Assembly: GCA_016176505.1 (NCBI GenBank) | Contig: JACOXB010000007.1 | Location: 1 to 56,283, forward strand | Origin: Candidatus Colwellbacteria bacterium | Lineage (GTDB): Bacteria; Patescibacteriota; Minisyncoccia; UBA6257; Colwellbacteraceae | Direction: 5' to 3' | Length of the DNA stretch: 56,283 bases | In this document: positions 21,359-23,904 of the stretch, piece after piece | Layout of the letters: every line of letters begins with the position of its first letter | Position numbering within the stretch: the stretch's first letter is position 1 | Notes under the pieces: model-generated | The model's database searches: none | Seen by the model: the letters and a program-made list of their open reading frames with translations, nothing else | Told to the model about the DNA's origin: nothing | Position numbers and translations under genes: made by a program

Positions 21359-21402
21359 GAGAGCGGGGCGGGCCGACCGAAGTCGGTCCCCGCCCCGCTC
21401 TC
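21359..21402 (-). terminator. long GC-rich hairpin closing island G5
   Basis: GAGAGCGGGGCGGGCCGAC CGAA GTCGGTCCCCGCCCCGCTCTC, 18 nt after the stop of ORF 21421..21903. Confidence 0.7.
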
Positions 21403-21420
21403 TGGGGGTGGAACGGCGGA

Positions 21421-21903
21421 TCAGCCGGCCAGGCTGCGCTCCAAGGACCGGAGCGCGTCGTAGCTCCGGCCCTCGGTGAGCTGCAGGGCGACGAGGTTGT
21501 CCGCCCTGATGCCCTCCTCGGCGGCTTCGCCGCTGTCGCGGTGGTGCAGGCCGTCGGAGCGCGGGAACCGCGCCCCGCAGGCGCCGCAGTGCGGCGCGCC
21601 CGGCAGAACCGGGCAGCCGCACCCGGAGCAGTAGCCGTCCTCGATGCCCTCGAGCGAGGGCGTCTCGGCCTGGATCTCGGCCCGGGCCTCCGCGTCGTGG
21701 TGGATGACCACCACGTCGGCGGCCTTGCGCCGCCCCCTCGACGAGTCGAGGACGATCTCGAACCGAACAGTCTCCTCCGGAACAAGGAAGCCGTCCGAGT
21801 CCTGGAGCGCCGTGACGTGCACGAAGAGGCGCCCCTTCCAGCCGTTCGGCTGGATGAAGCCGAAGCCGCGCTCCGGCCTCCACTCGATCACCTTGCCGTT
21901 CAT
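21421..21903 (-). CDS. G5-5: cold-shock-domain protein with C-terminal zinc-ribbon extension
   Basis: The start is set at MNGKVIEWRPERGFGFIQPNG (ATG 21903, preceded by GAGAGGGGGAAGGGCA). It has CSD RNP1-like GFGFI and FVHV, then CSGCGCPVLPGAPHCGACG (CxxC...CxxC). The track ORF begins 34 codons earlier. Confidence 0.8.
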   Translation of the reverse strand: MNGKVIEWRPERGFGFIQPNGWKGRLFVHVTALQDSDGFLVPEETVRFEIVLDSSRGRRKAADVVVIHHDAEARAEIQAETPSLEGIEDGYCSGCGCPVLPGAPHCGACGARFPRSDGLHHRDSGEAAEEGIRADNLVALQLTEGRSYDALRSLERSLAG

Positions 21904-21928
21904 TGCCCTTCCCCCTCTCTTCCGAACC

Positions 21929-21962
21929 CGAACAGTAAGTACGTTGATATGCTTACTGTTCG
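21929..21962 (-). promoter_or_regulatory. perfect 11-bp inverted repeat in the leader of the CSD gene
   Basis: CGAACAGTAAG, 12 nt, CTTACTGTTCG, about 30-60 nt upstream of the ATG. Confidence 0.5.
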
Positions 21963-22185
21963 AGTCCGGAAATTTTTGAAAAGAACTTTTGGTTTCGCCC
22001 TTCAATAACTGAGTTGGGCTCTTCAGGTCCGATTATCAATCGGACGACCAGTTCGACAGAGCAAGGGTTGCGCGCCTGGCACAAGGGGATGAGGTCTTTC
22101 TCTGGTTTATAGGCCGGCCAGCCACTTCGCCAGAGATTTCCTCTCACGCCGTCCCCCCTGCGGCAGGGCTCCTGGTGCATAGCCG

Positions 22186-22392
22186 CTATCGCCTCCGTAC
22201 GTAGTACCGGAGCCGCCGGTAGGCGCCGACGACGACCACGGATCCGGCAAGGATTGCCCCAGTTCCCAGGAGAATTAAGGACGCCCAGCCCAGGACCCCC
22301 TGTGACCCCTGACCGTCGGTAGCGAGGTCGACGACTAGGACCCCGAGTCCCGCTGCGGCGAATCCGATGCCCGCCTTCAGGATTCGGAACAT
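22186..22392 (-). CDS. G5-4: small two-TM membrane protein
   Basis: 68 aa (MFRILKAGIGFAAAGLGVLVVDL...LILLGTGAILAGSVVVVGAYRRLRYYVRRR). The ATG is preceded by GAGAGGAGGTGAAGAA. Confidence 0.55.
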   Translation of the reverse strand: MFRILKAGIGFAAAGLGVLVVDLATDGQGSQGVLGWASLILLGTGAILAGSVVVVGAYRRLRYYVRRR

Positions 22393-22464
22393 TTCTTCAC
22401 CTCCTCTCGAGGTGACTCACTTAGCGCCGGACCATCCGGCGCTTCAACGTGAGAATAGCCACGC

Positions 22465-22521
22465 TTCGAACTAGACTGGCTACCAACCGTTTATTTTAAT
22501 TGGCAATCAGCCTAGTTCGAA
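22465..22521 (-). promoter_or_regulatory. 22-bp imperfect inverted repeat in the long leader of G5-4
   Basis: TTCGAACTAGACTGGCTACCAA, 13 nt, TTGGCAATCAGCCTAGTTCGAA (18/22 complementary). Confidence 0.45.
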
Positions 22522-22617
22522 TTTTCTTACTCTGTCGATATTGAAATTTTTGAAAGAACGTTTGAGAGACTTTGTCCCTCACCAAAAGCCACTTCTTGAA
22601 AATGGACTTTGGTGAAG

Positions 22618-22651
22618 GGGAGGCGGTCCGTCCGAAGTCGGACCGCCTCCC
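22618..22651 (-). terminator. GC-rich hairpin after G5-3
   Basis: GGGAGGCGGTCCG, 8-nt loop, CGGACCGCCTCCC, 7 nt after the stop at 22658. Confidence 0.65.
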
Positions 22652-22657
22652 GCGAGG

Positions 22658-22807
22658 TCACAGGAGGCCGTTGAGGATGATCACGAACCCCTGGACGAGG
22701 AGGGCGACGACATACACGACCGCCAGAGCCCCGAGGGTCATGGCGATCACGTAGAGCCCCATCTCCAGGGACCTCCCGACGAGATGCCTGTCCGCCAGCT
22801 TGGTCAT
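22658..22807 (-). CDS. G5-3: small hydrophobic membrane peptide (49 aa)
   Basis: MTKLADRHLVGRSLEMGLYVIAMTLGALAVVYVVALLVQGFVIILNGLL. The ATG is preceded by AAAGGAGGAGCGG and lies 13 nt after the stop of G5-2. Confidence 0.55.
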   Translation of the reverse strand: MTKLADRHLVGRSLEMGLYVIAMTLGALAVVYVVALLVQGFVIILNGLL

Positions 22808-22820
22808 CCGCTCCTCCTTT

Positions 22821-23192
22821 CTAGCTGCCGGTGTGGGCCGAGGCGATGATCTCGATGGTGCTCGCGCTCTCAAGCGCGAGACCGAACGCGATCACGTCGT
22901 CGACCGTGAACGCCGGACCGCCCCAGTGGAGCTCACGCCATGAAGAGGGCTCGAGCTCACGAGGAGCGGGAGCCGCGGTCGCGGGCGACTCCGGCTCGAC
23001 CACGTCCACGCCAGCCGAGACGAGCAAGGACACGATCTTGCGGTCGGCCGGCTTGTCCACGACGTCGGAGCAGGCCGGGCAGGTGAACCGGTATCTGCCT
23101 TCGCGACCGCCATGGATCACCCAGAGCGCAATCGCCTCCGGCCTCATGTCTACCTCGCCACAGCGAGGGCACGTCGACCTGATGGTCGTCAT
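22821..23192 (-). CDS. G5-2: zinc-ribbon protein, unknown function
   Basis: 123 aa with CPRC...CPAC near the N-terminus and a Pro/Ala linker. The ATG is preceded by GAAAGGAGGGAAGCGTA. Confidence 0.7.
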   Translation of the reverse strand: MTTIRSTCPRCGEVDMRPEAIALWVIHGGREGRYRFTCPACSDVVDKPADRKIVSLLVSAGVDVVEPESPATAAPAPRELEPSSWRELHWGGPAFTVDDVIAFGLALESASTIEIIASAHTGS

Positions 23193-23417
23193 TACGCTTC
23201 CCTCCTTTCGAGTTTCGGCGCGCAGCCCTTCGATGAGTTCGGGATGAAAGGCTATGCGCCGAAACCCGGATTTTTAAAAAGAACAGTTCGACTTCGCTCA
23301 CTGCAGGCATTTCGATTTCGCCCGCGTAAACTTTCTCCATCTAAACCCACTATCTTTTGGATAATGAGCTTAGGTGAGGGGGCATTGCGGCTGCCCCAAG
23401 CCGTGGTGCTAGGATGC

Positions 23418-23666
23418 CTACCGCCACCGCTCCTGCGCCCGCTTCTTGATGTAGTCGGTCGAGTGATCCACCCCGATCTGCGTGTCGCAGACCGGGCAGC
23501 GGACGAAGTACCGCTCGTTGCTACGGTATTCCTCGTCCATCTCCCGACCTCCCCAGCTCACGTCGGCGGAGTAGTGAACATCCTCCGAGAGGTCGGCCTC
23601 GAAGGAGGTGTGGCAGTGGGGGCAGGAGAACCTTTTGGCTCCTGCGCCGTGGCTGACAATCTTCAT
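23418..23666 (-). CDS. G5-1: small zinc-ribbon protein, unknown function
   Basis: 82 aa with CPHC...CPVC. The ATG is preceded by GGGGAGAGGAAG. The hairpin GGGGCA/TGCCCC follows the stop. Confidence 0.65.
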   Translation of the reverse strand: MKIVSHGAGAKRFSCPHCHTSFEADLSEDVHYSADVSWGGREMDEEYRSNERYFVRCPVCDTQIGVDHSTDYIKKRAQERWR

Positions 23667-23904
23667 CTTCCTCTCCCCTCAGAGTCTTGGTCCGGTTCCT
23701 TTTCCCGGACCTAGCTGGTGAGGAAGTCGGGCTTCCCCACTAGTCAGGTCCGGGTTTATATTCAAGGTGCGATTTCTCCCATAAGGAGAATAATGAAGAG
23801 GAAAACGCGAGTGAGCCTTTTAATATTGCTTGGTTGCTTCGGTTCCTCTTCATTACTCTCCCCACAACATCCTTACATACTCCAGTATTTAAGGATGTTG
23901 TTCC

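Follow-up and report, generated by a model that had tools for sequence, protein, structure and literature searches.

A GC-rich gene array between recG and GT2

The window analyzed here is the whole of the 56,283-nucleotide contig JACOXB010000007.1 of a Candidatus Colwellbacteria bacterium (assembly GCA_016176505.1), in which a GC-rich array of small genes lies between recG and a gene for a GT2 glycosyltransferase (region 21197-24192; gap of 2996 bp). An initial annotation had described five small genes on the minus strand of a GC-rich island, and all five open reading frames (ORFs), G5-1 to G5-5, were located, with GC at third codon positions (GC3) of 0.75-0.96. G5-1 (23418-23666, minus strand, as are the others) encodes an 82-amino-acid (aa) protein with a four-Cys Zn-ribbon (CPHC..CPVC). 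G5-2 (22821-23192) encodes a 123-aa protein with a Zn-ribbon beta domain (CPRC..CPAC) and C-terminal helices. Starting 13 nt past its stop, with a GGAGG of its own, is G5-3 (22658-22807), a 49-aa hydrophobic peptide. G5-4 (22186-22392) is a peptide of 68 aa that contains two hydrophobic segments and is rich in Arg at its C-terminus, and G5-5 (21421-21903) is a 160-aa protein with a cold-shock domain (CSD) at residues 1-66, a linker, a CxxC..CxxC Zn-ribbon, and a 45-aa tail. The Zn-ribbons, CSD fusion, and membrane peptides that had been proposed agree with the Cys motifs, a Pfam CSD match, and Kyte-Doolittle windows, the last of which place a hydrophobic segment in G5-3 (residues 14-49) and two in G5-4.

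Composition sets the array apart from its surroundings. GC content is 62.4% in the island (21359-23700) versus 47.9% in the remaining window, and 300-bp windows reach 0.76 inside the island relative to a mean of 0.48 (standard deviation of 0.05) outside it. GC3 is 0.87 in G5-1, 0.85 in G5-2, 0.92 in G5-3, 0.75 in G5-4, and 0.96 in G5-5, compared to 0.43-0.53 in eight host genes. The pattern of GC across codon positions indicates that the five ORFs are genuine coding sequences from a high-GC source. The spacers between the ORFs are host-like, at 49-54% GC.

Judged by its genes, the contig is the ordinary chromosome of a Paceibacterota bacterium of the candidate phyla radiation (CPR). Relatives of its RecG among GTDB representative genomes are all from Patescibacteria/Paceibacterota, with the best at 84% and 82% identity and the others at or below 64%. 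Besides recG and the GT2 gene, the contig has genes for a CCA-adding enzyme, DoxX, TsaD, an aminoacyl-tRNA synthetase, PrsW, IF-2, RNase Y, ClpB, FtsK, RecA (51440-52579), FolD, and SHMT. No recombinase, integrase, transposase, or reverse transcriptase was found among the 38 proteins of the 56-kb contig scanned with Pfam. These scans, together with PADLOC and NCBIfam, gave no enzyme, integrase, or known system for the island, as the initial annotation had stated, and assignment to a defence system was rejected because neither PADLOC nor NCBIfam returned anything meaningful.

The recG and GT2 genes converge on each other with 8-76 bp between them in at least 12 genomes of related Paceibacterota. 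Sequence comparison with these tight junctions establishes the island as a real insertion into a conserved junction. The presence/absence comparison that had been proposed for the island thus yields an empty site in at least 12 relatives and an occupied one in a sister species, where the two genes are ∼3.9 kb apart. The sister species, hereafter species B, is represented by JGI metagenome contigs L093 and L094, which were found with the non-coding pattern of the island and are from one organism. Two ENA contigs (L011 and L012) were found through homologues of G5-5. Relative to the window, the flanks of species B have protein identities of 86% for RecG, 87% for GT2, and 81% for DoxX, and nucleotide identities of 77-78%. 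The island has the marks of horizontal acquisition: its composition is deviant, relatives have the site empty, and donor homologues exist, the last for G5-2 only.

Other lineages also have insertions in the recG-GT2 gap. In contigs L057, L070, L083, L084, and L091, the gap has unrelated insertions of normal GC that are 0.7-4 kb in size and encode, among others, a Gly-rich protein of 401 aa and pilin-like proteins whose N-terminal helix is of the 'FTLIELLL' type. A GC-rich stretch after recG in L083 and L091 was considered and rejected as related to the island; it encodes a Gly-rich protein. The recG/GT2 junction may be a recurrent insertion hotspot.

The GC-rich ORFs and the flanking genes belong to the same molecule. 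Logan contigs of SRR12113430, SRR12113385, and SRR12113420 match the window at 99.9-100%. A single contig of SRR12113430 covers 21210-24140 and crosses both junctions at 100% identity, and one of SRR12113385 crosses the junction on the GT2 side. Among the sister-species assemblies (two from JGI and one from ENA), GC-rich ORFs are joined to recG in L093 and L012 and to the GT2 gene in L094. Misassembly, which would have overturned the initial annotation, is excluded by these independent assemblies in two species. The Logan contig ends at 21210 and 24140 because a palindrome and a repeat are located there, and strain variation was rejected as the cause of the ends given this coincidence. The palindrome is perfect, is located past the recG stop (21189..21246), and serves as the recG terminator; it causes de Bruijn contigs to break at 21210-21228. 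It contains GCGATCGC, for which a relation to the cyanobacterial HIP1 element was considered and dropped, with only three copies in 56 kb and no enrichment. The repeat is a 67-bp intergenic sequence with a terminator-like hairpin. Its two copies (24099-24165 and 33864-33930) are 89.6% identical, one just past the GT2 stop and the other near a tRNA gene.

Structured modules and inferred turnover of units

The non-coding parts of the array are built from a recurring module. In the direction of the ORFs, its order is stop codon, hairpin 1 with a C(UUCG)G loop, hairpin 2, a mini-hairpin, the motif GTTCTTTTyAAAAAT, CCGG, a 5' stem-loop of ∼20 bp, GGAGG, and ATG. There are three copies of the motif in the window and at least five copies of the module across three haplotypes, and neither motif nor module has a copy elsewhere in the 56-kb window. 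RNAalifold applied to five module copies predicted two consensus hairpins with compensatory changes at seven pairs. The C(UUCG)G loop is present in every copy of hairpin 1 with a full-length stem (7 of 8) and absent from the short B_T2 copy. Between species, modules are ∼85-92% identical, versus 77-78% for the nucleotides of flanking genes. The structured leader, hairpins, 96-bp inverted repeat, and promoter/terminator unit of the initial annotation were all recovered, and the predicted folds of the leader and hairpins are far stronger than those of shuffled controls.

At the head of the array is a unit (23905..24034, minus strand) with a sigma-70 promoter, a predicted transcript of ∼90 nt, and an intrinsic terminator (23936..23918). 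The promoter (24034..24006, minus strand) matches the consensus TTGACA-17-TATAAT at 12 of 12 positions. Species B has kept the promoter, core, and terminator (L094, about 1911-2105) and has two additional hairpins inserted. The unit has no Rfam match and no ORF; it may encode a small RNA or serve to attenuate the array. Upstream, a GAGGAGA stretch might base-pair with the 3' arm of the terminator. Downstream of the unit is an 18-bp hairpin (23864..23901, minus strand) that is ∼95% identical in species B, followed by the 5' stem-loop of G5-1 (23704..23754, minus strand; z of -3.6), a paralogue of the species B leaders of a 184-aa gene and of G5-5.

The next elements precede G5-2. A motif copy, GTTCTTTTTAAAAAT (23270..23284, minus strand), marks a change in conservation, as window and species B are alike downstream of it and differ upstream. 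The 5' stem-loop of G5-2 (23207..23268, minus strand; z of -4.3) is upstream of the Shine-Dalgarno sequence and has been conserved in species B, where one base pair shows a compensatory change from G:C to A:T and the loop an indel of 46 nt. The indel separates the two species B contigs: L093 (about 190-300) and L094 differ by a 46-nt insertion in the loop, with stems intact. The contigs are from sibling samples, and this difference indicates strain-level variation within a module.

An inter-unit module follows G5-3 (22563..22653, minus strand). It has hairpin 1 with a UUCG tetraloop (22618-22651), hairpin 2 formed by TTCACCAAAG..CTTTTGGTGAGGG (22576-22618), and a mini-hairpin with a T-run (22563-22581); the hairpin after G5-3 has a z of -4.0. 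Adjacent to it, the motif copy GTTCTTTCAAAAATT (22545..22559, minus strand) forms the distal bound of the G5-4 unit. The G5-4 leader (22393..22544, minus strand) has a 22-bp stem, a GC hairpin, and a 7-bp hairpin predicted to sequester the Shine-Dalgarno sequence, and over 153 nt folds at -66.6 kcal/mol (z of -7.8). The spacer after G5-4 (21987..22185, minus strand) is part of the 282-nt gap between G5-4 and G5-5 and has no recognisable module. The motif copy GTTCTTTTCAAAAAT(TTC) (21972..21986, minus strand) is the proximal bound of the unit. The 5' stem-loop of G5-5 (21913..21971, minus strand; ∼20 bp; z of -6.9), just upstream of the Shine-Dalgarno sequence, has kept its pairing and changed its sequence in species B and L011. 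Beyond G5-5, a 3' stem-loop with a C(UUCG)G tetraloop (21356..21402, minus strand; z of -5.3) is a paralogue of the hairpin after G5-3.

On the recG side, the array is bounded by an inverted-repeat unit of 96-101 nt (21249..21349, minus strand), a long hairpin with T-runs on both sides. Its predicted RNA fold is -55.9 kcal/mol (z of -9.7), and the sister species has the arms conserved beside recG. The arm recurs a third time at 23287..23318, inverted relative to 21319-21350, so that inverted 32-nt repeats bracket the segment from G5-2 to G5-5.

The claim that the units are separately terminated stands in part. Strong hairpins follow G5-3 and G5-5, but those after G5-1 and G5-4 are weak. Because they lack a U-tract, the strong hairpins may be elements of RNA stability or processing rather than terminators. 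A scan with the sigma-70 consensus found the head promoter only and none at the motifs, and the mini-hairpin with its T-run (22581..22563) is weakly terminator-like. Candidates for a known structured RNA were rejected, as Rfam reported only tRNAs at gathering score and, in the island, noise at E-values up to 5.

The gene content of the array differs between species by whole units. In species B, the order starting from GT2 is the promoter/terminator unit, an 81-aa pentapeptide-repeat protein, a 184-aa membrane-anchored protein, a 68-aa protein with two transmembrane (TM) segments that is unrelated to G5-4, a homologue of G5-2, a 26-aa hydrophobic peptide, and a homologue of G5-5. The recG end has a UUCG hairpin and then the 96-bp inverted-repeat unit, as in the window. 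G5-1 and G5-4 are absent, and the 26-aa peptide has the position of G5-3 and is unrelated to it. GC3 of the species B island ORFs is 0.81-0.96. The two shared ORFs have diverged to 47% (G5-2) and 48% (G5-5) protein identity, a level well under the 81-87% of the flanking genes.

Three patterns bear the signatures of homologous exchange anchored on conserved sequence. The first is an indel. The G5-4 unit, comprising ORF, leader, and trailer, is a 573-bp difference located between two copies of an 18-bp sequence, GTTCTTTyCAAAAATTTC; L011 and L093 lack the unit, and there the module that follows the small peptide continues directly into the G5-5 leader. The second is an edge of divergence. Upstream of G5-2, the similarity between window and species B begins at the motif, and the sequences that precede it are unrelated. 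The third is within a gene. The G5-5 allele of L011 has 92-100% nucleotide identity to species B through the CSD and 96-100% to the window from the Zn-ribbon to past the stop, and the crossover is located in the single stretch conserved among all three alleles. By this alignment, G5-5 is a recombinant mosaic, and recombination inside the array is established at the level of sequence.

Relatives of the encoded proteins

G5-2 is the ORF with the clearest origin. It has 423 homologues (E <= 0.01), mostly 52-62% identical, and every organism-named one is from metagenome-assembled genomes of Actinomycetota. Its N-terminal ∼200 nt (193-205) have 77-78.5% DNA identity to actinobacterial genes. In an alignment of 48 sequences that are 52-59% identical to G5-2, 47 invariant columns are kept, including the Cys4 beta domain and the C-terminal FT.DD.I.F motif of an unnamed Actinomycetota family, which JGI labels 'DUF1610-type Zn-ribbon'. 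G5-2 is, on these similarities, of Actinomycetota origin. The possibility that the ORFs would fall into well-described families with unrelated functions did not come about: none did, and the G5-2 family is large and uncharacterised.

The neighborhood of these homologues, which the initial annotation had proposed to check, is conserved. In six long contigs and around the two closest matches, the order is prcB-prcA-pafA-DUF3866-pafB-pafC-[G5-2]-[74-105-aa single-TM protein]-tatA-tatC. The island pair resembles this arrangement in that G5-2 keeps the MTTIR.TCPRCGEVDM..YRF.CP.C...ADRKIV.LLVSAGVDV and GPAFT.DDVI.F motifs and has a small hydrophobic ORF directly after it. It differs in being detached from pafBC and tatAC; in the window, G5-2 is between G5-1 and G5-3 without paf or tat genes, and only the downstream small hydrophobic ORF is retained. 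The downstream peptide is also shorter in the islands (49 or 26 aa) and not detectably homologous, with no similarity found between G5-3 and the actinobacterial 74-105-aa TM partner, and the species B copy of G5-2 lacks the second Cys pair (CPSH). In the Actinomycetota contigs themselves (L005-L010, L095, and L096), a conserved, uncharacterised 120-aa Zn-ribbon protein and a small single-TM protein are encoded between pafC and tatA, an arrangement shared by many Actinomycetota metagenome-assembled genomes; an 'LGRSLRRFQEE' stretch of the TM protein loosely recalls TatA/B. G5-2 thus points to an uncharacterised and highly conserved Actinomycetota family between pafBC and tatAC.

A relative of G5-2 is also found in a phage-like context. 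A 97-aa protein is encoded at 5992-6285 of L097 (IMG/VR UViG_3300020020_000150), a high-GC contig that also encodes a dNMP kinase, endonuclease VII, and phrog_1221. Searches with tblastn of G5-1 and G5-2 found no match in 50,697 INPHARED phage records or 72,556 PLSDB plasmids. In a neighbor-joining tree, the window, species B, and phage copies of G5-2 group in 53 of 60 bootstrap replicates, as three long branches. The AlphaFold2 model of G5-2 has a predicted local distance difference test (pLDDT) score of 80 and is confident for the Zn-ribbon beta domain and C-terminal helices. Foldseek searches with the model against PDB and BFVD gave generic Zn-ribbon matches only (E >= 0.015), and a PDB profile search gave nothing specific.

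The other four ORFs have few or no relatives. G5-1 had no homologue in a word-seeded search, matches phrog_2834 over its full length (1.1e-9), and is absent from species B. Its single-sequence AlphaFold2 model is weak (pLDDT of 59.8), with two beta-hairpins, and too weak for a structure search. G5-3 has no match in Pfam, PHROG, NCBIfam, or PADLOC, the collections searched with it, the large protein collections not being among them, and G5-4 has no homologue among 1.84e9 representative proteins. G5-5 has only two homologues among 5.8e9 proteins, both in related islands, for three alleles in all. Its CSD (PF00313) is matched at an E-value of 1.3e-10 and 41.5 bits versus a cut-off of 27, with RNP1-like RGFGFI and RNP2-like LFVHV. 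The protein also matches a PHROG cold-shock family, and its match to the classical Csp equivalogs is far below cut-offs. G5-1, G5-5, and the module pattern have no match in IMG/VR. G5-5 is like CspA/CspE cold-shock proteins (CSPs) in that its N-terminus is a bona fide CSD, and like CSD-zinc-finger fusions (Lin28 and plant CSPs) in having a Cys4 element after the CSD. It differs from CSPs and Lin28 as a bacterial CSD with a CxxC..CxxC ribbon and a variable tail, a combination found only in these islands.

Five other GC-rich islets are located on the contig, at 4657-5487 (minus), 8244-8582 (plus), 9120-9398 (minus), 30180-30608 (minus), and 46725-47272 (minus). They have a 300-bp GC of 0.60-0.67 and ORFs of 86-276 aa with GC3 of 0.70-0.78, and are situated between normal housekeeping genes. 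None of the islet ORFs has a Pfam match, and the modules of the G5 array are absent from them. The genome seems to carry several compositionally foreign small genes, and the high-GC phenomenon is thus not confined to the recG/GT2 site. Two other ORFs of the contig are unusual. An 808-aa ORF (1701-4127, minus) has a GC at second codon positions of 0.63, above that at the first and third positions, has no Pfam match, and, as called, does not occur in the protein collection. This ORF could be in a wrong frame or encode a protein of repetitive or low-complexity sequence. At the N-terminus of a 440-aa protein (17350-18672, minus), a match to the plant defensin-like family AtDEF-like exceeds the Pfam gathering score (27.6 versus 25 bits), which is curious for a CPR bacterium.

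Origin and meaning of the array

We favor, at a probability of roughly 0.55, the reading that this is a lineage-specific hyperplastic accessory-gene array, inserted between recG and GT2, in which units are shuffled at conserved regulatory modules. A unit consists of the T-run/A-run motif GTTCTTTTyAAAAAT, a long 5' stem-loop, a strong GGAGG ribosome-binding site, one or two very GC-rich small ORFs, and a pair of 3' stem-loops, the first capped by UUCG and the second a conserved hairpin. The island ORFs are foreign, with G5-2, probably together with a small membrane partner, drawn from the gene pool of Actinomycetota or actinophages. The conserved non-coding modules would be native, and act both as portable regulatory cassettes and as anchors of homology. 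Through them, whole units could be gained, lost, and replaced, and alleles could recombine between co-occurring strains and species. Transcription may start at the sigma-70 promoter at the head, at A-rich boxes before the 5' stem-loops, or at both, and the stem-loops would stabilise or process transcripts. The CSD/Zn-ribbon protein G5-5 may act on the RNA structures of the modules. The products are predicted to be small nucleic-acid-binding and membrane proteins with a fast turnover, as for genes of conflict or host interaction.

By analogy, the closest described parallel appears to be the promoter-early stem-loop (PeSL) cassettes in the hyperplastic regions of T4-type phages (PMC2839356, PMC4122927). 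As in those regions, small ORFs of mostly unknown function are each framed by a short conserved stem-loop and AT-rich motif, indels and replacements between relatives start and stop at motifs (the G5-4 unit and the region upstream of G5-2), and exchange is by homologous recombination with no dedicated recombinase. In contrast to PeSL cassettes, the island is in a cellular CPR chromosome (recG, GT2, TsaD, ClpB, FtsK, and RecA) and not in a phage; its module is longer, with two 3' hairpins, the motif, and a 5' stem-loop, and has putative promoter activity; and the composition of its ORFs is foreign, GC3 reaching 0.96 against a genomic GC of 48%. Ordinary genomic islands of Patescibacteria (PMC12455944) share with the array a deviant composition, absence from relatives at a break in otherwise conserved synteny, and a cross-phylum donor, here Actinomycetota, for at least one gene. 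The array differs from them in lacking mobility genes, in being modular with conserved native spacers, and in that its site has different gene sets in sister species and its ORFs are unameliorated. The feature is best filed as a horizontally acquired island combined with modular shuffling mediated by regulatory cassettes in a CPR chromosome.

Several observations weigh against this reading. The consensus scan places a sigma-70 promoter at the head of the array only, so that the units may instead be cut from one polycistronic transcript, and the modules may not be 'promoter/terminator' cassettes at all. Three island haplotypes were recovered, all of a single narrow lineage, and the contigs of the two GTDB relatives that are closest end inside recG; turnover is therefore inferred from few comparisons. 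A donor was found for one of five ORFs (G5-2), with no sequence homologue found for G5-1 and G5-4, island copies only for G5-5, and no match for G5-3 in Pfam, PHROG, NCBIfam, or PADLOC. The G5-2 tree cannot separate one old acquisition followed by fast divergence from repeated acquisitions. Under a single old acquisition, a GC3 of 0.8-0.96 in a genome of 48% GC is unexplained. Lasting high GC3 in two species whose housekeeping genes are down to 77% nucleotide identity would be due to either re-import faster than amelioration or selection for GC-rich codons.

An alternative, which we regard as unlikely, is that the units are small toxin or stress modules, in which G5-3 and G5-4 are like type I toxins and are controlled by their leaders or by the neighboring Zn-ribbon and CSD proteins. 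Both peptides are short and hydrophobic, G5-4 with an Arg-rich tail, G5-3 is tightly coupled to G5-2 at 13 nt downstream, and content varies between strains, as is often the case for toxin-antitoxin loci. The single specific support is the long and highly structured leader of G5-4 with its Shine-Dalgarno sequence paired in a hairpin. However, no toxin-antitoxin or defence family was found in PADLOC, Pfam, or NCBIfam, no antitoxin-like partner was found, and the consensus scan gave no promoter-like site on the plus strand over 22186-22810, though such a scan is weak evidence. The pair of G5-2 and a small TM protein mirrors an Actinomycetota chromosomal pair beside tatA/tatC and not a toxin-antitoxin locus, and the peptide after G5-2 in species B is an unrelated 26-mer.

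It is similarly doubtful that the island is a decayed mobile element, that is, the early or moron region of a prophage or satellite that lost its integrase and structural genes and whose own signals are the modules. The PHROG matches of G5-1 (phrog_2834) and G5-5 (a cold-shock family), the relative of G5-2 on a phage-like IMG/VR contig, and the inverted 32-nt repeat that brackets the G5-2 to G5-5 segment are consistent with such an origin. Early regions of phages are typically arrays of tiny ORFs with repeated promoter/terminator modules (PMC2839356), which also counts in its favor. But there is no integrase, terminase, capsid, or replication gene in the array or the rest of the 56 kb, G5-1 and G5-2 are unmatched in the phage and plasmid sets, and IMG/VR contains no match to G5-1, G5-5, or the module pattern. 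GC-rich spacers would be expected of a high-GC phage, whereas those of the array are host-like in GC, and the two species have different gene sets at this one site.

An integron-like cassette array, a cluster of attC sites without an integrase (CALIN) that arose through site-specific capture, is very improbable. Like integron arrays and CALINs, the island has co-oriented small foreign ORFs, each followed by inverted repeats, with content that is variable among relatives and a strong promoter at one end, and its whole-unit indel is bounded by a short repeated motif that contains GTT. Unlike them, it has no IntI, and no tyrosine recombinase was found in the contig. The sequence GTTCTTT departs from the attC core GTTRRRY, and the element lacks an inverse core at its other end. 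Between units there are three distinct, near-perfect hairpins with UUCG loops of RNA type in place of a single imperfect, bulged attC stem. Finally, a chimera of assembly or binning, in which DNA of some high-GC organism would have been joined into a Paceibacterota contig, might be suspected from the extreme jump in GC and the clearly actinobacterial sequence of G5-2 and is effectively refuted by the SRR12113430 and SRR12113385 contigs across the junctions, the linkage of GC-rich ORFs to recG and GT2 in JGI and ENA assemblies of a different species, the account of contig breaks by the palindrome and the 67-bp repeat, and the host-like composition of spacers between the ORFs.

The shuffling of units at conserved modules that we favor could be carried further, to a speculative proposal that we consider improbable as it stands. 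The recG/GT2 junction would be a recombinase-free 'capture-and-express' platform, in which ORFs from a high-GC partner are plugged into native, strongly conserved RNA modules and continually replaced. The partner would be an Actinomycetota host of the epibiont or the phages of that host. If true, the GC3 of 0.8-0.96 would reflect ongoing re-import or selection for host-like codon usage, the latter because the products or transcripts act in the high-GC host. The array would then reveal the identity of the host of this Paceibacterota lineage, and would be a novel means of shuffling small effector genes in cellular genomes.

Most CPR bacteria, or Patescibacteria, are uncultured and, to our knowledge, almost no Paceibacterota have a known host. 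An array of small genes that varies between strains and derives at least in part from Actinomycetota or actinophages points to a physical partner and to a class of small interaction proteins. The persistence of GC3 above 0.8 in two diverged species provides a tractable test case for amelioration versus turnover. Furthermore, the shuffling of regulatory cassettes described for T4-type phages may also work in a streamlined bacterial chromosome without a dedicated recombinase.

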